The position numbers were made by a program, and so were the translations under genes. From an uncultured Candidatus Saccharibacteria bacterium (GTDB lineage Bacteria > Patescibacteriota > Doudnabacteria > UBA920): DNA of 64,000 nucleotides. Below the pieces are notes generated by a model. It saw only the letters and a list, made by a program, of their open reading frames with translations, was not told the origin of the DNA and did not search any database. How positions within the stretch are numbered: the stretch's first letter is position 1; each line of letters starts with the position of its first letter. Where the stretch lies: contig CAZFQP010000002.1 of NCBI GenBank assembly GCA_964520505.1, positions 26,804 to 90,803 of the forward strand. The letters run 5' to 3'. This document shows, in pieces, positions 3,746 to 61,353 of this stretch.

Positions 3746-4549
3746 TCAATTAGAAATTTCTTGGTAGAGTTTTGTTATTGCCGTGGCTTTGCCACCGGTT
3801 GATGTTTCTACAAGTGTGCCGTTGATTTGCAAAACCCCTTCTTCTTCCAATTCATTTACAAACTTGCCTTGTTCCAAAAACTTTTTTAAAACATTTTCCG
3901 GTTTAACGCCGATTACTCCGTTTAAAGCGCCGGTCATACCCGTGTCGGTAATATAGGCAGTGGCCTTAGCTAAAATTCTGGCATCGGCTGTTGGGACATG
4001 GGTGTGAGTGCCGGTTAAAAAACTCACTCGGCCGTCCAAATAATAACCCATGGCAACTTTTTCGCTGGTCGCTTCCGCGTGGAAGTCCACAATTATTATA
4101 TCACCTTTTTGCGCTTCCTGCGCTAACAGTTTATCAATAGCCAAAAACGGGTTAGCAATTTCACCGTCAAACTGATTTTCCATAAAAACCTGGCCGTTGA
4201 GGTTAACAACCAAGAATTGATTACCCTGTTTGGCAAAACGATAGTAGCCAAACCCGGGAAATTGGCCAACAAAATTGGCCGGACGGATTAGTTTAGGATA
4301 TTTTTCAAAACATTCCGCTGAAAGATGATGTTTGTTGAATATATGATTGCCGGAAGTAAAACAGTCTATGCCTAAATTATCAATATCCGCCAAAGTAGAC
4401 GGCGTCACTCCTTTTCCGTGGGCTAAATTTTCCACATTCACGATTACCGCATCTGGCTGATACTCACTTTGCCATTGCGGCAAGACCTCACGCAATATTT
4501 TGCGCCCCGGTTTCCCTACTACATCGCCGATGAAAAGTATTTTTGCCAA
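3746..4549 (-). CDS. ymdB: YmdB-family metallophosphoesterase (2',3'-cyclic-nucleotide 2'-phosphodiesterase)
   Basis: 267 aa; N-terminal 'ILFIGDVVGKPGR...NVEN..HG' calcineurin-like motifs of the TIGR00282/YmdB family; TTG start; lies immediately downstream of rny as in Bacillus. Confidence 0.8.
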   Translation of the reverse strand: MAKILFIGDVVGKPGRKILREVLPQWQSEYQPDAVIVNVENLAHGKGVTPSTLADIDNLGIDCFTSGNHIFNKHHLSAECFEKYPKLIRPANFVGQFPGFGYYRFAKQGNQFLVVNLNGQVFMENQFDGEIANPFLAIDKLLAQEAQKGDIIIVDFHAEATSEKVAMGYYLDGRVSFLTGTHTHVPTADARILAKATAYITDTGMTGALNGVIGVKPENVLKKFLEQGKFVNELEEEGVLQINGTLVETSTGGKATAITKLYQEISN

Positions 4550-4643
4550 TTTATAATCCTAATGTTCCGAATTAATATCCTAATGTTCCGAATGGGCCCA
4601 TTTGGGGCATTTGGATTGCAGTTTTGGATTATTCGGATTATGT

Positions 4644-9345: not shown

Positions 9346-10380
9346 TTATAAGGCAGTTACGGCCTTACTTCCTAATTTTACTAACACCTCCCGCAAATCA
9401 GTTGCCAATTCGCTTTCCGCTTCTATCCAGGTTTTATCCGGCAGGCGGACTTCGATTTTTTTGGCGTGAAGGAATTGCCTGGTTAGGCCGGTTAACTTAA
9501 CCGTTTTGCCTCCGTAGAGCTCATCACCCATTAACGGGTGGCCTATGGAAGCCATATGAACGCGAATCTGGTGCGTTCTACCTGTGTGCAATTTTACCAG
9601 AATTAGGCTATATTTGTCAAGGCTAGAAGCATCGGCGTGTTGGGTTATCGGAGTGTCTGACTGACTAATTTCCGACTTCCGACCTCTGACCTCTGACTCT
9701 CCCCCGCCCAAATATTCCAAGACCCTGTATTCTGTAACAGCCTCTTTTGCTTCAACCGGATTAACCGTGGTTTGTTTGCGAAAATCAGTTTTACTTTTGC
9801 CGATTGGAGTTTCTATAAAACCTTGGGATTTTTCCATTCTGCCCCGCACTAAAGCAATATATTCTTTTTTTATCTTACGTTCGGCAAAGGCATCTTTTAA
9901 AAATTCATACATCTCTTGTGTCTTTGCCACCAAAATAATACCGCTGGTGTCTTTGTCCAGCCGGTGAACAATCCCCGGCCTGTGCTCCTCACCAACCACG
10001 GCAATATCGGAAAAATTATACAACAAAGCCGAGGCCAATGTTTCTCCTTTAAATCCTGCTCCTGGATGAACCACCATACCGGCCGGTTTGTCGATGATAA
10101 GCAAACCATGATTATTATACAAAACTTTTAACGGCGTGTTTGTCGCCTGAATTGCATTTCCTTGATTCTTAATTTCTGATTCTTGATAATGAATCACATC
10201 ACCCAGCCGGACAACAGACTTAGACTCTAAAACTTTTTTACCATTAACCAAAACCTTACCCGCTTCTATGTCGCGCTGAATCTGGCTGCGGGAAATATCT
10301 TTTAGCTCCTGCGCCAAATATTTATCTAAGCGTGTTTTTAATTCTGTTACTTTAAACTGCTTCTCCATAATTTTGGTCAA
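9346..10380 (-). CDS. RluA-family 23S rRNA pseudouridine synthase (RluD-like) with S4 domain
   Basis: 344 aa; 'HRLDKDTSGIILVAK' catalytic motif and 'GRTHQIRVH'; contains a ~28-aa in-frame insert built from heptamer repeats (TTCCGAC x2, CTCTGAC x2). Confidence 0.8.
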   Translation of the reverse strand: MTKIMEKQFKVTELKTRLDKYLAQELKDISRSQIQRDIEAGKVLVNGKKVLESKSVVRLGDVIHYQESEIKNQGNAIQATNTPLKVLYNNHGLLIIDKPAGMVVHPGAGFKGETLASALLYNFSDIAVVGEEHRPGIVHRLDKDTSGIILVAKTQEMYEFLKDAFAERKIKKEYIALVRGRMEKSQGFIETPIGKSKTDFRKQTTVNPVEAKEAVTEYRVLEYLGGGESEVRGRKSEISQSDTPITQHADASSLDKYSLILVKLHTGRTHQIRVHMASIGHPLMGDELYGGKTVKLTGLTRQFLHAKKIEVRLPDKTWIEAESELATDLREVLVKLGSKAVTAL

Positions 10381-10396
10381 TTCTGATCAATTTTAT

Positions 10397-11122
10397 TTAA
10401 TTCTGGTCAATTAGCAAATCCGGTCTTCTCTTCTTTGTCCGTTTAACAGCTTCTTCTTTTCTCCATTCTTCAATATTTTTATGGTGTCCGGTTAATAAAA
10501 CCTTTGGCACTTTGTATTTTTTGTTTCCCAATTTCTTATTTCTAATTTCTAATGTTTCTGGTTTAGTATACTGCGGGTACTCCAGCATTGCTTCTGAAAA
10601 AGATTCTTTGTCTACCGATTCATCTTTTCCCAAAATACCCGGCCTCAGCCGTATTACCGCCTCAGCTATCACCAAAGCCGGCAATTCCCCGCCCATAAGC
10701 ACATAATCGCCAATGCTAATTTCTTCGTCTACAAATTGCCTGACCCGTTCGTCAAAACCTTCATACCTGCCGCAGACAAAAATTAGATTATCATACTTGG
10801 AAAGCCTTTGAGCTTCTTTTTGAGTAAACGGCTTCCCTTGCGGAGTTAACAAGATTATCCTTAATCCTTTATCCTTTATCCTTGAGGAGGCTGTTTTTAT
10901 GGCTTTGCACAAGACGTCGGCTCTCAACACCATTCCCACTCCCCCGCCATAAGGCCGGCCGTCGACAATCTGCCGCTCGGTCAAACCAAAACTTCTTAAA
11001 TTAACAGCTTTAAGATCTAATAGTTTAAGTTTAATCGCACGTTTAACAATACCAAAACTGTCCACAAAATTTTCAATAAATTGCGGAAAGAGAGTGATAA
11101 TTTTTATATTTAACTTTTTCAT
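10397..11122 (-). CDS. trmD: tRNA (guanine37-N1)-methyltransferase
   Basis: 241 aa; SPOUT/TrmD motifs ('GRPYGGGVGMVL'); in-frame heptamer-repeat inserts (ATCCTTT x3; AATTTCT array). Confidence 0.85.
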   Translation of the reverse strand: MKKLNIKIITLFPQFIENFVDSFGIVKRAIKLKLLDLKAVNLRSFGLTERQIVDGRPYGGGVGMVLRADVLCKAIKTASSRIKDKGLRIILLTPQGKPFTQKEAQRLSKYDNLIFVCGRYEGFDERVRQFVDEEISIGDYVLMGGELPALVIAEAVIRLRPGILGKDESVDKESFSEAMLEYPQYTKPETLEIRNKKLGNKKYKVPKVLLTGHHKNIEEWRKEEAVKRTKKRRPDLLIDQN

Positions 11123-11130
11123 ATAATTTT

Positions 11131-11229
11131 CTACTAAATACTAAAAAAACTAAACTACTAAAACTTTCAATTCACGCTTTCGTACTTTCGCCTGCCTGCC
11201 GGTAGGCAAGTTCTTTTCGTATTTAGTAG
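11131..11229. repeat. AT-rich TIR element, copy 3, carrying an internal GC-rich palindromic insert (GCCTGCCGGTAGGC)
   Basis: same TIRs (one mismatch); ~28-bp extra GC-rich segment also seen inverted at 51379-51396. Confidence 0.65.
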
Positions 11230-16960: not shown

Positions 16961-18829
16961 ATGAATGCAATCAGTGAACAATTAAAAAATAAGGTTTCAA
17001 GCCTGCCCAAACGGCCGGGCATTTACCAATTCCTCAACGACAAAGGGAAAATTTTGTACGTAGGCAAAGCCAAAAATTTGCAGAGCCGGGTGAGGCAATA
17101 TTTTGGCCATGACGACACCAGAGCGCAAATCCCTTTTTTAATGGCCGAGGCCACGGACATAAATTACACTGTGGTAAATAGCGAATTGGAGAGCGCGTTT
17201 TTAGAAAACACGCTAATTAAACAATACAGTCCCAAATATAATATAGATTTAAAAGACGATAAAAATTACGCCTTTATAAAAATTGATTACTCCACCCAAA
17301 TCCCCCAAATCGGCTATGCAAGAAAAGTAGAGACGCCTACAAGCTACAAACTAAAAGCTAAAAGCTTATTTTTCGGCCCCTACTCCGCCGCTTACAAAAT
17401 CCGCAACACGCTAAACCTGGTACGGAAAATTTTTTCTTTTTGCGCCAACGACAAAGTAAGCAACCGTCCCTGCTTCTACTATTATATGCACCGCTGCCCG
17501 GGAGTATGCATTGGGAAAATCAGCCTGGAAGAATATAACCAACACCTAGAGAAAATAGCCAAATTTTTGCAGGGCGACACAGCAGGCGTCTACAAAGAAA
17601 TTAAAAACGAGATGCAAAAAGCAGCCGCGAAAAAGAGATTCGAAACAGCCGCGCGCCTGCGTGACCAGTTAAAGGCTTTGGAACTGCTCACGGAAAAACA
17701 AAATGTAATTTTAGCTAAAAAAGTTGACTGGGATATTATTTCCCTGGCTGCTGCTGAAAACCACGCCTGCATTAACTTGTTTAAAGTCCGCGGTGGCAAG
17801 CTATTCGACAAGGAAAATTTTATTTACCAGCTCCCTGCCCTCTGGCGGCAGGACGGCCACGAAGCAGCGGCATCGGAAATTATAAATACTTTCTTACAAA
17901 AATATTACTTGGAAACCAGCAGCCTACCCAAAGAAATTTTTCTGCAGTATCCGATTGACCGCGAAGACGATGTTGCCGGAATAATTTTTCAACATACCAA
18001 AAAAAGAATAAAAATTTCCGTCCCGCAAAAAGGCCAAGTAACAAAACTAATAACTCTCGGCACGGCCAATGCAGATGAATATTTAAAAAACTGGATGTCT
18101 GCCCAAGCCGGCCATTTGGACAAAATTAATGCCTCCTTAGCTCAGCTGCAGCAAGTCTTAAAACTAAAAAGCCTGCCCAAACGCATTGAATGCTATGACA
18201 TTTCCAACATTCAGGGCACTAACCCTGTTGGCAGCATGGTAGTTTTTAAAGACGGGCTGCCGGCCAAGTCTGAATACCGAAAATTCAAAATTTACGGCAA
18301 AACCACGCCGGATGATTTTGCCATGATGATTGAAATGCTAACCCGCCGCTTTGCCCGCCTGAAGAAAAAAGATAAAAAATTTCCCAAGCCAGACCTGATT
18401 GTTATAGACGGTGGCAAAGGACAGCTTAATGCCGCTCTGTCTGCCCTACAAGCCACTCCCTACCTGCCTGGCGGACAGGCAGGCAAACTACAACCTATGC
18501 CTATTATTGGTCTGGCAAAGAGGATTGAGGAAATATTTCTACCAAACCAAGATCAACCCATAATTTTGAATCACGACCAGCCGGGACTTCAACTGCTCCA
18601 GCGCCTGCGTGACGAGGCTCACCGTTTTGGCATTACCTTTCACCGTTCCCTGCGCAGTAAGCAAGCAGTCCATTCAGCTTTAGATGATATCCCGGGCATT
18701 GGACCAAAAACAAAAAAATTGCTTAAAACCAAAATTGGAACTGTGGAAGAGATAAAAAAAAGAACCGAAGGTGAGCTAGCTTCGCTGGTTGGAATTAAAT
18801 TAGCTCATTTGATAAAAGAAAGTTTATGA
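16961..18829 (+). CDS. uvrC: excinuclease ABC subunit C
   Basis: 622 aa; GIY-YIG ('GIYQFLNDKGKILYVGKAKNL'), UvrBC-interaction and C-terminal HhH regions. Confidence 0.9.
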   Translation: MNAISEQLKNKVSSLPKRPGIYQFLNDKGKILYVGKAKNLQSRVRQYFGHDDTRAQIPFLMAEATDINYTVVNSELESAFLENTLIKQYSPKYNIDLKDDKNYAFIKIDYSTQIPQIGYARKVETPTSYKLKAKSLFFGPYSAAYKIRNTLNLVRKIFSFCANDKVSNRPCFYYYMHRCPGVCIGKISLEEYNQHLEKIAKFLQGDTAGVYKEIKNEMQKAAAKKRFETAARLRDQLKALELLTEKQNVILAKKVDWDIISLAAAENHACINLFKVRGGKLFDKENFIYQLPALWRQDGHEAAASEIINTFLQKYYLETSSLPKEIFLQYPIDREDDVAGIIFQHTKKRIKISVPQKGQVTKLITLGTANADEYLKNWMSAQAGHLDKINASLAQLQQVLKLKSLPKRIECYDISNIQGTNPVGSMVVFKDGLPAKSEYRKFKIYGKTTPDDFAMMIEMLTRRFARLKKKDKKFPKPDLIVIDGGKGQLNAALSALQATPYLPGGQAGKLQPMPIIGLAKRIEEIFLPNQDQPIILNHDQPGLQLLQRLRDEAHRFGITFHRSLRSKQAVHSALDDIPGIGPKTKKLLKTKIGTVEEIKKRTEGELASLVGIKLAHLIKESL

Positions 18830-21098: not shown

Positions 21099-21155
21099 AA
21101 CTATTGAAGATTTTTGATATAAGATTTAAGATATAAGAACAAATCAACTTTATTT

Positions 21156-28225: not shown

Positions 28226-29311
28226 ATGAGCTTTCAAATCGGCATCGTCGGCCTGCCTAATGTCGGCAAATCAACCCTATTTAATGCCATTACCAAAAGT
28301 AAGGTAGAAGCAGCCAACTACCCTTTTGCCACTATCGATCCTAATGTGGGAGTAGTCGCCGTGCCGGACGAACGCCTGGCCAAACTGGCAAAGTTAGAAA
28401 ATAGCGAAAAAATCGTCCCGACTACCATTGAATTTGTAGATATTGCCGGGTTGGTTAAAGGCGCCTCTACCGGCGAAGGTTTGGGTAATAAATTTTTAAG
28501 CCACATTCGCGAAGTGGACGCGATTTTGGAAGTGGTGCGCGTATTTGAAAATAAAGATATTATTCACGTAAACGGCTCGGTAGACCCGTCGCGCGATATG
28601 GAAACCATTGCCATAGAACTCCAACTGGCCGACCTGCAAAATGTGAATAATCGCCTAACAACCATAAACAAACAGGTAAAAAGCGGCGACCGAGACGCAA
28701 TTGTAAAAAAACAAGTTTTGGAAAAATATAAAGTGGCTTTGGAAAAAGGCGAAATGGCCGGCACTGTGCAGTTGACCGATGAAGAAAAAGAACACAGCAA
28801 AGAAATAATTTTGTTGACCAACAAACCGATGATGTATGTGGTAAACGACGAATTTAATTTGGAACAAAAAAAATTCGCGTCGGAAATTTCAAATTCTAAA
28901 TTTCAAATTTCAAATCCAATACCAATCGACGCAAAAATAGAAAGCGAACTGTCGGAACTGGACGACGCCGAAAGAGCGGATTATCTTAAAGAACTTGGAC
29001 TGCCCGAGTCAGGCTTAGACAAAATTATTAAACAAGCCTACAAAACTTTGGGACTAATTACCTTTATTACCGCCGGACCAAAAGAGTCCAAAGCCTGGAC
29101 CTGCCCGGCTGGTTTTAAGGCGCCTCAGGCCGCAGGAAAAATTCATACAGATTTTGAAAAAGGATTCATTCGCGCCGAAGTTATTCAATGGGATAAACTC
29201 CTGGAAGCCGGTGGTTACGGTGAAGCCAGAAATAAAGGCTGGCTTAGAACCGAAGGGAAAAATTACACCATCCAAGACGGCGACGTCGTCCACTTCCTGT
29301 TCAATGTGTAG
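28226..29311 (+). CDS. ychF: ribosome-binding ATPase YchF (Obg-family GTPase-like)
   Basis: 361 aa; 'GIVGLPNVGKSTLFNA' P-loop, TGS-like C-terminus 'KIHTDFEKGFIRAEV'; contains an in-frame AAATTTC heptamer array (encoding SEISNSKFQISN). Confidence 0.9.
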   Translation: MSFQIGIVGLPNVGKSTLFNAITKSKVEAANYPFATIDPNVGVVAVPDERLAKLAKLENSEKIVPTTIEFVDIAGLVKGASTGEGLGNKFLSHIREVDAILEVVRVFENKDIIHVNGSVDPSRDMETIAIELQLADLQNVNNRLTTINKQVKSGDRDAIVKKQVLEKYKVALEKGEMAGTVQLTDEEKEHSKEIILLTNKPMMYVVNDEFNLEQKKFASEISNSKFQISNPIPIDAKIESELSELDDAERADYLKELGLPESGLDKIIKQAYKTLGLITFITAGPKESKAWTCPAGFKAPQAAGKIHTDFEKGFIRAEVIQWDKLLEAGGYGEARNKGWLRTEGKNYTIQDGDVVHFLFNV

Positions 29312-31604: not shown

Positions 31605-31620
31605 ACCAAGTATAAAAAGG

Positions 31621-31716
31621 AAATTAAAATGCAAAAATCAAAGTGTAAAATTATTGAGTCCGCCTTCGGCGGACACCTACATTTTTAATTTTGATATTTA
31701 AACTTTAAAATATTTT
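31621..31716 (+). repeat. ~95-bp terminator-plus-promoter module, copy 1 (between ssb and rpsR)
   Basis: ~75% identical to 31953-32049; GC hairpin GTCCGCCTTCGGCGGAC plus T-run, then TTGATATTTAAACTTTA directly before the ATG. Confidence 0.6.
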
Positions 31717-31950
31717 ATGAGACCACAAAGAGACAGCCAACCACAAGTTAAGAAGCAGTGTTATTTCTGCTCCAACAAAATTTCCACGGTGGACTATAAA
31801 GACACGGTGACTTTACGCCGCTTTATGTCCCCGCACGCGAAAATTTTAAACCACAACCGCACAGGCACTTGCCCAAAGCACCAAAGATTAGTGACCAAGT
31901 CACTAAAGCAGGCCAGACACATGGCCTTGTTGCCTTTTGTAGCAGCCTAA
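31717..31950 (+). CDS. rpsR: 30S ribosomal protein S18
   Basis: 77 aa; 'DYKD...LRRFMS..AKIL.HNRTG.C.KHQR.L...LK.AR.MALLP'. Confidence 0.9.
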   Translation: MRPQRDSQPQVKKQCYFCSNKISTVDYKDTVTLRRFMSPHAKILNHNRTGTCPKHQRLVTKSLKQARHMALLPFVAA

Positions 31951-31952
31951 CA

Positions 31953-32049
31953 AAATTAAAATTGAAAAATCAAAATGTAAAATTACAGATTCCGCCTCCG
32001 GCGGAAACCTATATTTTGCACTTTGATATTTAAACTTTACAATTTCACT
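31953..32049 (+). repeat. ~95-bp terminator-plus-promoter module, copy 2 (between rpsR and efp)
   Basis: hairpin TTCCGCCTCCGGCGGAA plus T-run, then TTGATATTTAAACTTTA. Confidence 0.6.
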
Positions 32050-42937: not shown

Positions 42938-42978
42938 ATTTTCGCTATCTACCTCTAATTCTCTAACAGACTATCTCA

Positions 42979-43392
42979 CTAACTTTCTAATTCTCTAACT
43001 CTCTGTATATCAAACTTAATCTGTTTTTTTAACTCTGCCTCATTTTTAAACTTCTTAAATGGCCGAAGGTATTTTATCAAATGCAAAGTAATTTTTTTGC
43101 CGTACAAATTTCCTTTAAAGCCAATTAGGTGTGCTTCTAGTTTTGGCAATCCTTCTTTATCTATAGGCCCTATAATTATCCCCGCGGGATAATTTCTGAT
43201 TTCCAATTTCTGATTTCCAATTTCTGCCATTCCTGCATAAATACCTAATTTTATATTCTGTTTCCTGCGGGAATAGCTTCTCCTGTCCAAATTAGCAGTC
43301 GGAAAACCTAAAAGTCTGCCATACTGCTGGCCTTTAACAACTAGCCCGCTGATGGTTACTGTTTTTCCCTTTTTAGAAGATTTTTGAATCAT
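42979..43392 (-). CDS. riboflavin kinase (monofunctional flavokinase domain)
   Basis: 137 aa; 'TISGLVVKGQQYGRLLGFPTANL' flavokinase motif; contains an in-frame heptamer array (ATTTCTG/ATTTCCA x5); C-terminal 10 aa from the same repeat as the EamA gene. Confidence 0.65.
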   Translation of the reverse strand: MIQKSSKKGKTVTISGLVVKGQQYGRLLGFPTANLDRRSYSRRKQNIKLGIYAGMAEIGNQKLEIRNYPAGIIIGPIDKEGLPKLEAHLIGFKGNLYGKKITLHLIKYLRPFKKFKNEAELKKQIKFDIQRVRELES

Positions 43393-43429
43393 GAATTAAG
43401 AATTATGAATTATGTTTTTCCCTTGATTC

Positions 43430-44383
43430 TTAATTCTTACTTCTTAATTCTGTTTCTTGCTCGGCTATAAACTTTTCCACGTCTAACGCGGCCATACAGC
43501 CCATACCCGCGGCGGAAATCGCCTGGCGGTAGCGAGGATCGTTTACGTCTCCTGCAACAAACACCCCTTCAATGTTTGTTTTTGTACTGTCTTTAACTTT
43601 TACATAACCTTTAGCGTCGGTCTGTATGCCGGCATCGGCAAAAATTTTTGTGGCCGGCGAATGGCCAATGGCCAAAAACATTCCTTGAACCGAAAGCGTA
43701 GATTCAGTGCCGGCAGCGTTATCTTTTATCTTTAATCCTTCCACGGAAGTCTCTCCCAAAACATCCGTCACTGTGACATTGGTAATAAAAGAAATTTTTG
43801 GATTATCCTGGCAGCGCTTTAGCATTATTTTGGAAGCTTTAAATTCGTCGCGGCGATGGACAATGTAAACTTTATTGGCAAACTTGGTTAAAAAGGATGC
43901 TTCTTCCATAGTGCTATCTCCCCCGCCGATTACCGCGACATCTTTGCCTTTAAAGAAAAACCCGTCGCAAGTGGCGCAAGCTGAAACGCCCTTGCCGCGC
44001 AAGCGTTGTTCGTTAGCCAAACCCAGCCAGTTGGCTGTGGCTCCGGTAGCGACAATAACGCTCTTAGCCAAATATTCCCCTTTTTCTGTTTTGACGCTAA
44101 ATGGTTGTTGTTTAAAATTAACTTCGCTGGCGCTTTCGGGTAAAATAACCGTGCCAAACCTTTCGGCCTGCTTGGTCATATTGTCCATAAGTTCCGGGCC
44201 CATAATGCCGTTTATAAATCCCGGGAAATTTTCCACTTCTGTGGTATCCATTAACTGCCCGCCGGGTTTTTGTCCGGCTAATACCAAGGGTTTTAATTCC
44301 GCTCGTGCCGCATAAATGGCCGCGGTTAGCCCGGCCGGACCGGAACCGATGATTATAACATTATATACTTTGGGGTTATTCAT
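43430..44383 (-). CDS. trxB: thioredoxin-disulfide reductase
   Basis: 317 aa; FAD and NADPH Rossmann motifs and redox-active 'CATCDG'. Confidence 0.9.
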   Translation of the reverse strand: MNNPKVYNVIIIGSGPAGLTAAIYAARAELKPLVLAGQKPGGQLMDTTEVENFPGFINGIMGPELMDNMTKQAERFGTVILPESASEVNFKQQPFSVKTEKGEYLAKSVIVATGATANWLGLANEQRLRGKGVSACATCDGFFFKGKDVAVIGGGDSTMEEASFLTKFANKVYIVHRRDEFKASKIMLKRCQDNPKISFITNVTVTDVLGETSVEGLKIKDNAAGTESTLSVQGMFLAIGHSPATKIFADAGIQTDAKGYVKVKDSTKTNIEGVFVAGDVNDPRYRQAISAAGMGCMAALDVEKFIAEQETELRSKN

Positions 44384-46076: not shown

Positions 46077-46166
46077 TTATGTCTTCTACTTAATGCTAAA
46101 TTTTGTTCCCTTGCCCCCTAATTTTGCTCAATTTTACTTAATCTTGGTCAATTTTGTTCAATTACA

Positions 46167-50281: not shown

Positions 50282-50491
50282 AAATAATTTGATGATTTAA
50301 AGATTGTAGATTTTAAAATTTAAAATACAACAAAATTGAATCAACTTTTGATATTTTACCATAAATGGTTGGTTTTATCAAGGGCGCGATTTAGCAGAAA
50401 CAATGGATTATAATAGATTATTTTTTACAAAAAAGATGGGGCCTAAGGCGCCCCATCTAAATGGCCATTTCGGCCAAGCCGGATTTTGTGC

Positions 50492-53522: not shown

Positions 53523-53638
53523 TTTAGGTTGTAGGTTGTAGGTTGTAGGTTTTTAGCAATCAATCATTAATGCCAAAATTGAACAAAAATATTTTTAAAA
53601 AATCATATCAATCATGTTCAATTTTTTAAATTTTGTCA

Positions 53639-56122: not shown

Positions 56123-56638
56123 ATGGGGAAGACAATTCGCCTTTCATTTTTTGTTATTTTTGCCGCATATTTTATTTCCTGCGCCGCCTCGCCGGCCGAA
56201 TGGCATTTTATAGACGGGGTTAATTTAATTTTTCACGAAGCCGGCCATTGGCTGTTTTGGCCTATGGGAGAATTTTTACATATTCTTGGAGGCAGTTTAA
56301 ATCAAGTTTTAATTCCCCTGCTTATTTCGTTTTACTTTTTTTGGAAAAAACAGCCTGTCTCCGCTTTCGCGGTTTTGCTCTGGGCAGGCCAAAGCCTAAT
56401 AAATATTTCTGTTTATGCAGCCGATGCCACAAAAATGCAATTACCTCTGTTAGGCGGCGATAGTTCCACTCACGACTGGAACTGGTTGTTAATTTACTTG
56501 GGGCAATTAAGGCATACCCCACAAATAGCACAAGTAATAACTGTCTGCGGCTGGCTGGTTCTATTGGCTGGACTTTTTGGGGGCATATATTTTATACTTA
56601 TTGAATCTAAAAAAGTAGACTATGGACAAACTAATTAA
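56123..56638 (+). CDS. membrane protein with HExxH motif (putative zincin-like membrane peptidase, DUF3267-like)
   Basis: 171 aa; 4-5 TM; 'IFHEAGHWLFWP' HExxH within the first TM region. Confidence 0.4.
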   Translation: MGKTIRLSFFVIFAAYFISCAASPAEWHFIDGVNLIFHEAGHWLFWPMGEFLHILGGSLNQVLIPLLISFYFFWKKQPVSAFAVLLWAGQSLINISVYAADATKMQLPLLGGDSSTHDWNWLLIYLGQLRHTPQIAQVITVCGWLVLLAGLFGGIYFILIESKKVDYGQTN

Positions 56639-56765
56639 TCATAAAAAAAATAAAGTAATTCTCGCCAAGCCCTCTCTTCCCCTCGCTCCTGCTCGGGGCA
56701 CTCTCTCCCGCAAAACACCCTCATCCGGCCTACGGCCACCTTCCCCCAAAGGGGGGAAGGAAAAA

Positions 56766-57923
56766 ATGAATGGTCTTTTGGGAGAGAGGAAAAAAGTGAT
56801 TCTCGCTATTGAGACTTCCTGCGACGAGACCGCGGCGGCGGTTTTGGAAATAATCCCTCACCCTACTCTCTCCCGCAAGGGGCGAGGAGGGAATGCGCAG
56901 TGGCCGGAAATTGCCACCTTGTCTTCTGTTGTCAGATCGCAAATTAAACTGCATAGCAAAATGGGCGGCGTAGTGCCGGAAGTTGCCGCCAGGGCGCACG
57001 TAAAAAATATCCGCCCCGTGGTGGAAGCCGCTCTCAAAGCTAGCAGCTATAAACTAGAAGCTATAAGCTATATCGCCGTTACCGCCGGCCCCGGACTAAT
57101 TCCGTCTTTAATTGTTGGCGTTGAATTTGCCAAAGCACTTTCTCTGGCCACCGGTATTCCGCTCTTACCCACTAACCATATGCTAGGACACCTATACTCG
57201 CCTTTTGGGCGAGTAAAATCCAAAATCCAAATTTCCAATGACGAATCACACCCAGAAGGCTGCCTTCTGGGGCAGCCCCAGAAGGCAGCCTTCTTTCCAA
57301 TGATTGCTTTAATCGTTAGTGGCGGACACACGATGATTGTGTTAATGGAAAACGAAAAAAACTATCGGGTGCTTGGACAAACCGTAGACGACGCGGCAGG
57401 TGAAGCATTTGATAAAGTTGCCAAGCTCCTTGGCCTCCCCTACCCCGGCGGGCCGGAAGTTTCAAGGCTGGCTTTGTCCGGCAACCCGGAAGCCATAAAA
57501 TTTCCCCGTCCAATGCTAAATAATAAAAATTATAACTTTTCCTTCTCCGGCCTAAAAACCGCCGTACTGTACTATGTAAAAGATAAGGGATTAGGGATAA
57601 AGGATAAAAATATTGTCAACGATATTTGCGCCTCTTTCCAAGCCGCTGCAGTAGACGTGCTGGTGCAAAAAACTATGCGCGCTGCCAAAGAATTTAAAGC
57701 TAAATCTGTTTCCCTGTCCGGCGGCGTTTCCGCCAATCGCCTCCTGAGAAGTGAACTAGAAGCTATGAGCTATAAACTAAAAGCTAATTTTTTCGTTCCC
57801 CCATTTAACCTTTGTACCGACAACGCGGAAATGATAGGCATAGCCGCGGCCTTTGCCCTGCATAACGGCAAAAAACCAGTGCCTTATAAAAAGGTTAAGG
57901 CGGACAGCAATATGGAATTGTAA
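56766..57923 (+). CDS. tsaD: tRNA N6-adenosine threonylcarbamoyltransferase TsaD (Kae1/Gcp family)
   Basis: ~385 aa from the ATG at 56766 preceded by GGGGGGAAGG. It has 'ILAIETSCDETAAAV', metal-binding 'HMLGH' and 'AGGV' motifs. There are two insertions relative to E. coli TsaD, one of which is a 41-nt perfect palindrome. The ORF-track start at 56622 overlaps the upstream gene and reads through GC-rich repeats, so it is probably not real. Confidence 0.85.
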   Translation: MNGLLGERKKVILAIETSCDETAAAVLEIIPHPTLSRKGRGGNAQWPEIATLSSVVRSQIKLHSKMGGVVPEVAARAHVKNIRPVVEAALKASSYKLEAISYIAVTAGPGLIPSLIVGVEFAKALSLATGIPLLPTNHMLGHLYSPFGRVKSKIQISNDESHPEGCLLGQPQKAAFFPMIALIVSGGHTMIVLMENEKNYRVLGQTVDDAAGEAFDKVAKLLGLPYPGGPEVSRLALSGNPEAIKFPRPMLNNKNYNFSFSGLKTAVLYYVKDKGLGIKDKNIVNDICASFQAAAVDVLVQKTMRAAKEFKAKSVSLSGGVSANRLLRSELEAMSYKLKANFFVPPFNLCTDNAEMIGIAAAFALHNGKKPVPYKKVKADSNMEL

Positions 57924-58276
57924 AATTTGCTAAAAAAATTGTTAGTGCTATAATTTAATTATGCCCAGTAGAGCTACTTTGAAAAATAATTTCAAGATAC
58001 CTCGAACAGTGGCATTAGCAATATTGTTAATATCTTTCTTAGATAATAATTCAAAGTGATTCTACTGGGTATGATTAAATCGGGCTTACAATTTATGATT
58101 TCTTTCTCCTCCTCTTCCTCCTCTAGCCGCAAGGCAGAGTGGGAATTTTAGGTTTATCTAAATTTCTCCCCCGCTCTGCATTTAGAGCGGGTTTTTTGTT
58201 TTCTGATATCTGCCGTAAATATTAAGGTAGGTATGAGGAAAGAAAAATCCTCAAATTCAGGCTTTAAGGAGGCCTT

Positions 58277-58864: not shown

Positions 58865-59121
58865 CGGAGCCCCGGCCTTTCTTTATACTTGCTACTTGCT
58901 ACTTGCTGCTATATAATAAACCTAAGCTTATGTTTCGGCTGTCACCGAAGCGGCGCCAAAAGAACGTCAAATTATTGACTAAGTAGACTTGGCCGGAAGT
59001 TATCCGTAAATAACACAATTAAGTAAATTTGAGATGGCACCGCCCGCGAGGGTTCTCACACCGTATTTAACGGTGTTTTATTTTGCTTAATTCTTAATTC
59101 ATTATTCTTAATTCTAGTATT

Positions 59122-61353
59122 ATGGACTTACCAAAAGCCTACGACCACTCCCAAGTGGAAGATAATATTTACCAAACCTGGTTGGATAGCGGTTATTTTA
59201 ATCCGGACAAATTGCCGGAAAGCGAAAGCCGCGAACCTTTTACCATTTCCCTACCGCCTCCTAATGTAACCGGGGTGCTGCATCTTGGCCACGCATTTGA
59301 AGACACCATTCAAGACACTGTTATTAGATATCAAAGAATGAATGGCAAACGCGCGCTTTGGGTTCCGGGGACTGACCACGCGGCCATTGCGACTCAGGCT
59401 AAATTTGAAAAAGAACACTATAAAAAAGAGGGTAAATCTAGGCACGAATACTCCCGCGAAGATTTTTTCAAGATGATTCAAACTTTTGCCTTAGAAAACC
59501 AAAAAAATATTTTGTCGCAACTGCGCAAGCTTGGACTGTCTATGGACTGGAGCCGCCTGGCTTTTACCTTAGACCAAAACCGGGAACTGGCCGTGAGAAC
59601 GGCATTTAAAGAAATGTTTGACTCCGGGCTTATTTATAGAGGAGACCGGGTGGTTAATTGGGATCCAAAAGGCCAAACCACAGTTTCAGACGACGAAATT
59701 GAATATGAGGAAAATAAAACTAAGCTATACACTTTTCGCTATGCTAAAAATTTCCCCATAGCAATTTCCACAACCAGGCCGGAAACCAAAGTCGGCGACA
59801 CCGCCGTGGCAGTTCACCCCGAAGATGAAAGGTACAAAAAATTTATAGGACAAGAGTTTGACTTGGAATTTTGCGGCACCCCCTTGCATATAATAATCGT
59901 TGCAGACAAAGAAGTAGACCCGGCGTTTGGCACCGGCGCGCTTGGCGTCACCCCGGCCCATAGCGCGGTTGACTATGAAATCGCCCAAAGACATAATTTA
60001 CCGCTAAAAACAGTTATAAACGAATTCGCCAAAATGACTGTAAAAAGCGAGCTGTTGCAGGGCAAAAAAACCTCCGAGGCCAGGCTGATTGTGGCTGACT
60101 GGCTAAGACAACAAGGCTTGATGGAAAAAGAAGAAGACACCACACAAAACCTTTCCAAAGCACAACGCACAGGTGGAGTTATTGAGCCCCTGCCAAAACT
60201 GCAGTGGTTTATTAACGTAAATAAAAAATTTAAAGCCAAAGGAAATAAACTTACAGGCATAAAAGACGGCGAAGAAATAACCCTAAAAGAGTTGATGGTT
60301 CGCGTAGTCAAAAACAAACAGATAGAAATCATGCCGGAAAGGTTTGAAAAAATATACTACCACTGGATTGATAACCTGCGCGATTGGTGTATTTCCAGAC
60401 AAATAATTTATGGGCATCAAATTCCGGTTTGGTATCGCCCTGCCCCTTCCTCCCCTTCTGAGGGGAGGACACAGGAGAGGTCGAACGAAATTTATTGCAA
60501 TATTACTCCCCCAAAAGAAGAGGGGTGGACTCAAGACACCGACACACTGGATACCTGGTTTTCCAGTGGACTGTGGACTTTTTCTACTTTGGGCTGGCCA
60601 AACCAAACCGAAGATTTTAAAATGTTCCACCCGACTTCCGTTATGATGCCGGGCTATGAAATTTTATTTTTCTGGGTCGCGCGTATGATTCTAATGAGCG
60701 GCTTTTTGCTTGGCGATATACCTTTTCATAAAGTTTATTTGCATGGCATTGTTCGCGACAAACAAGGCAGAAAATTCAGCAAGTCCTTAAATAACGGCGT
60801 TGACCCTTTGGAAATGATATCCAAATACGGCACGGACGCGCTAAGGTTCGCATTAGTTTTTGGGGCAGCCCCGGGCAATGACGTTATGTTTGATGAACAA
60901 AAAATCAAAGGTATGAAGCATTTTGCCAACAAGCTTTGGAATATATCGCGTTATATTCTTATGAACATAACAATTTCAAATTCCCAATTTCAAATTTCAA
61001 ATTTGGAGCCACAAACTCAGGCAGATACGGAAATTTTGGCAAAGTTGGAAGCTACCATAAAATCTGTCACCAAAAATTTGGACAGCTATAATTTACACGA
61101 GGCAGCGCAGGAAATTTACCAATTCACCTGGCGCGAGTTTGCGGATATTTATTTGGAAGCTTCTAAAGCGCAGCTTAACAACGAAGAACAAAAAGCTAAC
61201 ACTCAGACCATCTTAACCCATTCGCTGATTCAAATTCTAAAATTGCTCCACCCCTTTATGCCGTTTATTACCGAACATATTTGGGGTCTAATGCAAGAGC
61301 AAGGGCTATTAGATAAAAATGATCTGCTAATAATTTCTAACTGGCCTAAATAA
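59122..61353 (+). CDS. valS: valine--tRNA ligase (short form lacking the long C-terminal coiled coil)
   Basis: 743 aa; 'PPPNVTGVLHLGHAF' HIGH and 'KFSKSLNN' KMSKS; ValRS-type editing-domain and anticodon-binding regions; contains an AAATTTC heptamer array and a GC hairpin in-frame. Confidence 0.85.
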   Translation: MDLPKAYDHSQVEDNIYQTWLDSGYFNPDKLPESESREPFTISLPPPNVTGVLHLGHAFEDTIQDTVIRYQRMNGKRALWVPGTDHAAIATQAKFEKEHYKKEGKSRHEYSREDFFKMIQTFALENQKNILSQLRKLGLSMDWSRLAFTLDQNRELAVRTAFKEMFDSGLIYRGDRVVNWDPKGQTTVSDDEIEYEENKTKLYTFRYAKNFPIAISTTRPETKVGDTAVAVHPEDERYKKFIGQEFDLEFCGTPLHIIIVADKEVDPAFGTGALGVTPAHSAVDYEIAQRHNLPLKTVINEFAKMTVKSELLQGKKTSEARLIVADWLRQQGLMEKEEDTTQNLSKAQRTGGVIEPLPKLQWFINVNKKFKAKGNKLTGIKDGEEITLKELMVRVVKNKQIEIMPERFEKIYYHWIDNLRDWCISRQIIYGHQIPVWYRPAPSSPSEGRTQERSNEIYCNITPPKEEGWTQDTDTLDTWFSSGLWTFSTLGWPNQTEDFKMFHPTSVMMPGYEILFFWVARMILMSGFLLGDIPFHKVYLHGIVRDKQGRKFSKSLNNGVDPLEMISKYGTDALRFALVFGAAPGNDVMFDEQKIKGMKHFANKLWNISRYILMNITISNSQFQISNLEPQTQADTEILAKLEATIKSVTKNLDSYNLHEAAQEIYQFTWREFADIYLEASKAQLNNEEQKANTQTILTHSLIQILKLLHPFMPFITEHIWGLMQEQGLLDKNDLLIISNWPK

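Follow-up and report, generated by a model that had tools for sequence, protein, structure and literature searches.

Simple repeats with a unit of seven nucleotides have a long record in bacteria: their over-representation was reportedly surveyed by Mrazek and colleagues in 2007, and reports of heptamer repeats in cyanobacteria are said to be older, from about 1990. According to two published accounts, the long simple sequence repeats of prokaryotes are built of head-to-tail 7-nt units, are mostly intergenic and are dominated by heptamers among units of 5–11 nt (PMC4692102; PMC4679880). In one of these accounts, the bacterial preference for 7-base tandem repeats is described as known since at least 2007 and as unexplained (PMC4692102). 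Here we analyze a 64,000-nt stretch of DNA (the window) from an uncultured Candidatus Saccharibacteria bacterium, placed by GTDB in the Doudnabacteria (UBA920; assembly GCA_964520505.1, contig CAZFQP010000002.1, positions 26,804 to 90,803), in which heptamer arrays lie between genes and, in frame, inside housekeeping genes such as ychF and valS. According to Tandem Repeats Finder (TRF) and to lag-7 identity segments, these are also head-to-tail tandem 7-nt units. In contrast to the repeats described previously, they reach about 12 times the density of control bacteria, belong to a host of the Candidate Phyla Radiation (CPR, Patescibacteria), sit in frame at conserved sites of essential housekeeping proteins and are limited in length to ~30 nt. 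In our literature searches, no publication connected heptamer repeats with Patescibacteria or the CPR.

Several families of heptamer repeats provide closer comparisons. The TAACTGA repeats of marine Beggiatoaceae, some Cyanobacteria and Bacteroidetes occur in short sets of 2–6 copies, many of them immediately upstream of start codons, with occasional inverted sets, and the paper on them considers how heptamers are read in three phases and how stop codons constrain their orientation (PMC4679880). The short tandemly repeated repetitive (STRR) sequences of Calothrix and Nostoc, and the GGGAATC and GGGGA(T/C)T repeats of Xanthomonas and Nostoc, combine a lineage-specific excess, an intergenic location and inverted stem-loop pairs; between related strains their sequence and length vary and their position is kept (PMC4692102). 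The window arrays resemble the STRR, Xanthomonas and Beggiatoaceae families in their short intergenic sets of 2–6 copies, some of them in inverted pairs. Tandem dimers of the STRR units CCCCAGT, TTGGTCA and CAACAGT, and of TAACTGA, GGGAATC and GGGGATT, were absent from the window and from 389 kb of clade loci. The differences concern the units and their location. The TAACTGA system has one favored unit, whereas the Doudnabacteria use dozens and their arrays are common inside conserved genes (PMC4679880). The units of the STRR and GGGAATC type are few, G/C-rich, with G-quadruplex potential and up to 26 copies, whereas those of the Doudnabacteria are AT-rich and diverse (PMC4692102).

Like the arrays described here, Rickettsia palindromic elements (RPEs) are in-frame repeats tolerated inside unrelated housekeeping genes; however, they are mobile elements of ~150 bp forming conserved families, whereas the Doudnabacteria arrays are ~30 nt long, without conserved ends or evidence of transposition (PMC10969869). 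The hallmarks of RPE-like miniature inverted-repeat transposable elements were not seen: the arrays share a period and not a sequence, and no common ends or flanks were evident, no systematic search for them having been made. Borg elements also carry genome-specific, pervasive, A-rich tandem repeats in genes and spacers and encode low-complexity protein segments, but their in-gene units are all divisible by three and evolve fast, whereas the Doudnabacteria unit is 7 nt, read in three phases and stable between strains (PMC9879509). The Doudnabacteria arrays fit the known heptanucleotide simple-repeat phenomenon and are not evidence of a new copying machine. They are set apart from the known families by the diversity of their units, their AT-richness and their systematic in-frame occupation of essential proteins. 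The clade is an unusually clean case, with apparently small genomes, a 12- to 15-fold excess confined to period 7 and many relatives, and comparing lineages with and without the excess could reveal the responsible replication or repair factor. Here, repeat dynamics at the DNA level write the sequence of variable segments of conserved enzymes, which bears on the alignment, phylogeny and annotation of CPR proteins.

Period-7 excess and its restriction to the clade

Exact tandem heptamers of at least 2 copies number 30 in the window, against 4.3 ± 2.1 in dinucleotide shuffles, and those of at least 2.5 copies number seven, against 0.13. TRF reported 22 period-7 rows (1.7 ± 1.4 in shuffles). We also counted lag-identity segments, that is, maximal segments of identity at lag p, a measure independent of TRF: the window has 13 at period 7 and two or fewer at any other period except the lag-14 harmonic, and the shuffles have 0.04. 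The excess over shuffles ranges from ~13-fold by TRF to more than 100-fold by the other measures. TRF rows of period 8 are also above shuffles (11 vs. 2.0), far less than those of period 7, and rows of period 10 are not (4 vs. 2.6). In 414 kb of clade DNA, lag segments at period 7 number 65, compared with 4, 2, 10, 2, and 7 at periods 6, 8, 9, 10, and 11, respectively; shuffles of this DNA gave none, save one at period 11. The earlier note had proposed to test period 7 for enrichment over periods 6 and 8 and for an excess over shuffled sequence of the same composition. Both hold, with 13–30 observed versus 0.04–4 in dinucleotide shuffles and an excess without counterpart at periods 5, 6, 8, and 10.

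The closest relatives of YchF, ValRS, and TsaD were found in metagenome-assembled genomes of Candidatus Doudnabacteria and Patescibacteria, and an identical ValRS is encoded on an NCBI contig of 98,660 nt. CPR bacteria generally have reduced gene sets, and the genomes of this clade appear small, the largest related contig being 1.2 Mb long. The window itself has a GC content of ~0.43 and a negative GC skew along its entire length. Four relatives syntenic with it (L082–L085) contain 4–11 TRF period-7 arrays each, where 0.2–0.7 are expected. A metagenome scan with a back-translated motif adjoining the YchF loop yielded 55 independent loci. Those with GC 0.40–0.47 (39 loci, 222 kb) carry 74 period-7 arrays where 5.0 are expected; none occurs in the GC-rich loci among the 55. 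The assemblies behind these replicate tests came from JGI, ENA, NCBI, and Logan. A contig scan with a YchF pattern matched only one close relative; its remaining loci, mostly from Firmicutes, were reused as negative controls (1.34 Mb of other bacteria). They contain 22 lag-7 segments, that is, 0.016 per kb versus 0.20 per kb in the window. Among periods indivisible by three, 7 ranks first even in these control bacteria. The period-7 excess is restricted to the clade.

Sites, inheritance and anatomy of the arrays

The ychF array (plus strand, TRF 28884–28915, AAATTTC x4.6) contains the tract ATTTCAAATTCTAAATTTCAAATTTCAAAT at 28886–28915 and encodes EISNSKFQISN. The valS array (plus strand, TRF 60972–61004, AATTTCA x4.7) contains the tract ATTTCAAATTCCCAATTTCAAATTTCAAAT, encoding ISNSQFQISN. 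The near-identity of the two tracts had been pointed out in the earlier note, and direct comparison confirmed it: two positions out of 30 differ (28/30 identical). The valS tract is real but had been placed 7 nt off, at 60966–60995; it lies at 60973–61002. Both tracts have a T>C change in unit 2, a single shared deviation whose chance is ~0.04 by our own estimate, made without a tool. The ychF array forms a variable segment equal in length to LDRVREIAAKEGAVV of Haemophilus influenzae YchF, and YchF orthologues down to ~79% identity have ISN-type peptides. The valS array occupies a variable loop, to which it adds 7 aa compared with the shortest ValRS orthologues; in an 81%-identical ValRS, the ends of the array are kept around a 14-aa insertion. 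By these comparisons, both arrays are old and inherited vertically.

Two other causes of the unit common to ychF and valS were considered. In a perfect (AAATTTC)n array, A_AAT_TTC fits the −1 frameshift motif X_XXY_YYZ, and this unit is mutated in both genes. An avoidance of frameshifting is nevertheless unsupported: L139 keeps the motif intact and valS retains A_AAT_TTG. A stop-codon filter is insufficient alone, as 1608 of the 2340 rotation-grouped heptamer classes are stop-free and the chance of pair-sharing is 0.003.

In-frame arrays are present at permissive positions of unrelated housekeeping genes encoding YchF, ValRS, TsaD, TrmD, RluD, UvrC, and RibF. The names of ychF, valS, tsaD, rluD, trmD, and the riboflavin kinase gene agree with Pfam or PDB matches. 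Positions were judged by PDB sequence alignments, the AlphaFold model of YchF (mean pLDDT, the per-residue confidence, 57.5) being too poor for this. Compared with solved structures and orthologues, the in-gene arrays of YchF, ValRS, TsaD, TrmD, and RluD fall within lineage-specific insertions or variable segments. The claim of the earlier note that heptamer arrays are tolerated in frame in essential genes is supported. In hundreds of metagenomic relatives, the same essential proteins have arrays at identical sites, and the encoded peptides show a 7-aa (21-nt) super-period. Elsewhere in Patescibacteria, the YchF segment is occupied by heptamer arrays with other units, by 8- or 9-nt arrays or by in-frame GC-rich perfect palindromes; any repeat type that a genome produces can thus be accommodated there. 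Such GC-rich palindromes replace the array in L096, L100, L104, L113, L124, L135, and L138, those of L096 (TCTCCCCCTTATAAAGGGGGAGA) and L135 (GTAGGGGAGGGTTTAAAACCCTCCCCTAC) being perfect.

TsaD has heptamer-type sequence at four sites, in the window and across 120 orthologues. All are on the plus strand. Site 1 (57037–57072) is of the AGCTATA type and encodes 'SSYKLEAISY'; the orthologous array of L088 is (CTACAAG)n. Site 2 (57215–57244) consists of AAAATCC x2 + AAATTTC, encoding 'KSKIQISN', and is followed by a perfect 41-nt palindrome. Site 3 (57577–57608) is of the GATAAGG type ('KDKGLGIKDK'), where L088 has an unrelated (CTACCAN)n array of equal length. Site 4 (57756–57791) is a weaker heptamer-periodic tract of the AGCTA type ('AMSYKLKAN') with 19/29 lag-7 matches. 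Overall, the window and L088 have related units at two sites and unrelated units of equal length at the other two. The palindrome next to site 2 (57254–57294) has 20-nt arms and a 1-nt center, is in frame and encodes about PEGCLLGQPQKAAF. It occurs once in the window and is present in L086, and its 16-aa segment is missing from the TsaD of L088. In the 5' part of tsaD (56622–56900), further sequence distinguishes the two proteins, which are 433 aa long here and 353 aa in L088. Part of the surplus is an N-terminal extension of 45 aa, and part is a GC-rich insert, IIPHPTLSRKGRG, resembling translated hairpin repeats.

Orthologous arrays occupy the same sites in relatives. We compared the window with one close strain, represented by L086 and L089 (~95% DNA identity). 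The ychF region of L089 (JGI 3300045378, contig Ga0490020_003989) is present twice, with its neighbors and in inverted orientation, probably an assembly artefact of a palindromic contig. None of the seven arrays compared with the close strain differs in unit number. Coding arrays differ at 2 of 171 positions, compared with 5.1% of all coding sites (P 0.007) and 13% of four-fold sites (P 2e-8). Intergenic arrays diverge by ~9% (7/79, counted by hand), near the 13% of four-fold sites. The process described as active in the earlier note is thus not apparent on the timescale of strains: in this single-strain check of copy number, the seven arrays keep their unit number, and coding arrays vary less than the genes that contain them. 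The arrays are not hypervariable contingency loci or phase-variable switches. On longer timescales their units do change. In ychF, the window has the unit ATTTCAA, L082 has ATTGCCA/ATTACCA, and L083 has ATTTCCA x2, a parallel change across several units. The array at 53525 has been homogenized: it is perfect here, its close-strain counterpart reads TAGATAC TAGATTG TAGGTTG, and the two differ in length by just 1 nt, at the border. Units thus change in parallel without change of length, that is, by concerted evolution.

When rotations and strands are grouped, the 136 arrays collected from the clade represent more than 40 classes of unit. AATTT-core units, found in 32 of them, are the commonest type. 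Copy numbers have a median of 3.9 and a 95th percentile of 5.1, and arrays seldom exceed ~4.5 units (~30 nt). Their lengths peak at 27–32 nt and drop sharply above 33 nt, alike in coding and non-coding DNA. An artefact of TRF was rejected as the source of this peak: simulation gave a mild bump at 18% divergence and left long arrays untruncated, and a limit independent of TRF is equal. A 17-copy TGCTACA array at a gene boundary in L082 (20299–20418) is the sole long heptamer array in ~414 kb of clade DNA. TRF arrays of period 7 or 14 cover 2.36% of the non-coding and 0.79% of the coding DNA of the window (~3-fold), and lag-7 segments of the clade loci are ~6.7-fold enriched outside long open reading frames.

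Neighboring arrays are often inverted: among 26 pairs, 14 are inverted and 2 direct copies. The pair at 43378–43458 is predicted to form a hairpin of −17 kcal/mol (z −5.2), and an inverted pair in L084 one of −34 kcal/mol (z −6.5). AAATTT is self-complementary, and hairpin-prone units were considered as drivers of slippage; this was rejected, idealized arrays folding at −2.11 versus −2.32 kcal/mol for permuted units. In the spacers of the S6-SSB-S18-EF-P cluster, arrays recur in several genomes with differing units. In only 18 of the 57 window genes does a Shine–Dalgarno-like motif lie no more than 18 nt from the start codon. Gene leaders are mostly A/U-rich, and several are heptamer arrays.

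Origin of the arrays

The origin that we consider probable is a clade-specific slippage and homogenization in a 7-nt register, filtered by selection. A DNA-level process of the clade would create and homogenize tandem arrays of 7-nt units, most likely by misalignment of the nascent and template strands in this register during replication or repair. Selection would decide where arrays persist: in spacers, often as hairpin-forming inverted pairs, and in proteins at structurally permissive segments, insertions and termini. Within genes, the survivors would be the net in-frame versions that are stop-free in all three phases. Over long times unit variants spread or vanish at constant array length; the same protein site therefore carries different units in different lineages. 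In the accounts cited above, heptamers are the most over-represented long simple repeats of many prokaryotes and polymerase slippage is proposed as their source; a published hypothesis relates the unit length of 7 nt to the stretch of DNA that the polymerase holds at its active site (PMC4692102; PMC4679880). For the Doudnabacteria, period specificity, clade restriction, location, length limit, vertical inheritance and concerted change are properties of the arrays themselves, from which we infer slippage as the molecular mechanism and a reason for the number seven. In Escherichia coli, the minimal length for efficient homologous pairing is ~23–27 bp, and the ~30-nt limit might correspond to the array length L at which L − 7 reaches this minimum.

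Several points weigh against slippage and homogenization as the whole explanation. Stepwise slippage by 7 nt would pass through frameshifted intermediates. As these would be lethal in essential genes, in-gene arrays would have to change by steps of 21 nt, by compensated events or by a templated conversion that leaves their length as it is. The sharp ~30-nt limit and a dip at 21–23 nt are unlike the monotonic decay of a simple slippage equilibrium, and since no copy-number polymorphism was seen, ongoing slippage is unproven. There are 21 pairs of units that differ by at most one mismatch, versus 11.1 under a composition-matched null (P 0.003–0.04), a ~2-fold clustering of unit families, and the sites within one TsaD protein share families above chance, an excess that in-place slippage alone would not lead one to expect. 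The unrelated units of equal length at two TsaD sites look like replacement rather than drift. Finally, the units are no more hairpin-prone than permuted ones, so that stabilization by slipped hairpins fails to explain unit preference. The frameshifted intermediates, the non-monotonic lengths and the same-site replacements leave some room, which we consider small, for a process that writes or copies blocks. A dedicated, sequence-independent writer of ~30-nt heptamer-periodic tracts, for instance a polymerase, reverse-transcriptase or recombination activity reiterating a 7-nt template about four times, seems to us quite unlikely. Such an activity would overwrite permissive DNA in place at unchanged length, occasionally with another array as donor. 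If real, it would explain together why period and array length are both fixed, why one protein site can hold unrelated unit families and why different genes have near-identical tracts.

Slippage and homogenization within each array would also compete with copying between loci, in which a ~30-nt module or consensus moves by ectopic gene conversion, template switching or a very small mobile element and the ychF and valS tracts are true copies. We regard this as unlikely. The 28/30 identity of the two tracts with their common T>C change, the characteristic array length of ~30 nt and the occupation of one TsaD site by equal-length arrays of unrelated unit families in two lineages speak for it. So do two tsaD sites of L146 that share 33/38 nt and three tsaD sites of L148 with the CTACAAA family. 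TsaD sites 2 and 3 share peptide 3-mers within the same protein in 23 of 120 cases versus 13.7 ± 3.2 expected (P 0.004), and 4-mers in 8 versus 3.1 (P 0.01). Of the remaining site pairs, two are at P ~0.02 and three fall short of significance. Identical units are found in 3.5% of within-locus pairs versus 1.7% between loci. On the other hand, the within-protein concordance of unit families in TsaD is modest, 1.5- to 2.6-fold (P 0.004–0.02), and exact unit pairs number 2 versus 0.5–0.7 under the composition-matched null (P ~0.1), so that one window pair sharing a unit is not unusual. Imperfections are mostly unshared between similar tracts, the variant positions of the L146 sites differing in every unit. 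The unit family of TsaD is missing from the ValRS loops of L147 and L148. L082 in ychF and L088 in valS have dissimilar arrays, which counts against copying if these different assemblies represent one organism, as we assumed. Both window arrays are older than the divergence from relatives at 81–88% protein identity. Shared flanks, target duplications and terminal repeats were not evident in the sequences examined, no systematic search having been made. The unit preference is clade-wide; a modest local homogenization, or occasional local conversion, is possible, and direct copying between ychF and valS is unproven. The 28/30 identity would arise mainly because both are arrays of the favored AATTT-core unit, and occasional ectopic conversion between arrays may add to it. 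Of the process postulated in the earlier note, the period-7 specificity stands, with its large clade-restricted excess and concerted change, and copying between unrelated genes is weakened by the sharing of the commonest unit type. The same unit type would account for most of the ychF/valS similarity.

Arrays might instead be functional, as periodic protein- or RNA-binding sites whose 7-nt period and ~4-unit length mirror the geometry of a binding partner, or as hairpin terminators, transcript stabilizers or unstructured translation leaders. This alternative, which we hold to be rather unlikely, is consistent with the narrow, sequence-independent array length, the inverted pairs folding into stable hairpins, the recurrence in the same S6-SSB-S18-EF-P spacers, the conservation of coding arrays above neutral sites and the several arrays that abut start codons in a genome with few Shine–Dalgarno-like motifs. 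The diversity of unit classes argues against a sequence-specific partner, however, and a cis-function is hard to imagine for similar arrays in coding loops of unrelated enzymes. There are no Rfam family matches. Protein-level constraint can explain the conservation of the coding arrays, the intergenic ones diverging nearly as much as four-fold sites. As to chance, or plain low-complexity AT-rich sequence with period 7 as a reading artefact, the arrays are indeed AT-rich (mean unit GC 0.28 vs. 0.43 for the window) and many of the shortest TRF rows (15–19 nt) are close to the detection threshold. The shuffle and control tests refute this explanation, to which we give almost no credence: neighboring periods are not enriched in the clade lag segments, and the excess recurs in independent assemblies from all four sources and is absent from the 1.3 Mb of other bacteria.

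Other arrays and repeats of the window

The other arrays listed in the earlier note are all present according to TRF, within a few bases of the positions given there. Our search added those of uvrC, trxB and tsaD (57037–57072, 57577–57608, and 57756–57791) and those upstream of two tRNA genes. On the minus strand, trmD has two arrays, at 10530–10553 (sense AGAAATT, 'LEIRNKKL'), coinciding with a 9-aa insertion relative to solved TrmD, and at 10855–10883 (sense AGGATAA, 'RIKDKGLRI'), in a loop that exceeds its counterpart in solved TrmD by 3 aa. The rluD array (9670–9698, minus strand; TTCCGAC x2, CTCTGAC x2) lies within a ~30-aa insertion relative to E. coli RluD. In uvrC (17337–17366, plus strand), CTACAAG/CTAAAAG x4.3 encodes 'TSYKLKAKS'. 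The array of the riboflavin kinase gene (43191–43226, minus strand) has a perfect 14-nt period x2.6, alternating sense GGAAATC/AGAAATT ('EIGNQKLEIRN'), and trxB has a short TTATCTT x2.7 array (43719–43737, minus strand; 'LKIKD'). Between these two genes, an inverted pair of 30-nt arrays (43385–43451; TGAATTA x4.3 and CTTAATT x4.3) fills the trxB-ribF spacer, reaches into both coding ends and folds as a hairpin.

Among the intergenic arrays, ATCCTTA x4 at 30–57 has a partial inverted partner at 83–103 (overall 30–103). ATTTAAG x5 (21103–21138) lies 17 nt upstream of tRNA-Leu, and ATTTAAA x4.3 (50295–50326) 13 nt upstream of a minus-strand tRNA-Glu gene. The array at 53525–53551 (perfect TAGGTTG x3.9) abuts the start codon of an ABC-transporter gene. 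At 58886–58907, a perfect TACTTGC x3.1 array follows a terminator-like hairpin and overlaps a promoter-like −35 hexamer. A 21-mer repeat is located at 4548–4593. Upstream of valS, CTTAATT x4.3 (59086–59115) ends 6 nt before the start codon. The preceding leader (58918–59080) has a terminator-like hairpin (59058–59076) and sequence reminiscent of a T-box; a T-box leader was rejected, as there was no Rfam match even at E values up to 1.

Tandem arrays of period 8 and 10 are found at 215–250, 42953–43004, 46120–46163, and 10369–10412. They comprise an in-gene TCCGATTC x4.5, the spacer repeats CTCTAACT x6.5 and AATTTTGCTC x4.4, and a 10/20-nt array that spans the trmD-rluD junction. Three intergenic palindromic elements (1878–1948, 2357–2428, and 11131–11229) have near-identical 15-nt arms, CTACTAAATACTAAA and TTTAGTATTTAGTAG, each made of two TACTAAA units, with a single mismatch in one arm of the third copy. 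These arms are also present in a non-orthologous spacer of L084 (13147–13250) and in L093. Two copies of a ~90-nt, terminator-like element (31615–31720 and 31950–32040) flank the small S18 gene; each consists of an A-rich arm, a GC-rich stem-loop (TCCGCC..GGCGGA) and a T-rich arm. Finally, a ~110-nt insertion at 57966–58072, missing from L086, has terminal inverted repeats CCCAGTAGA...TCTACTGGG and TATG flanking both sides and looks like a miniature mobile element.

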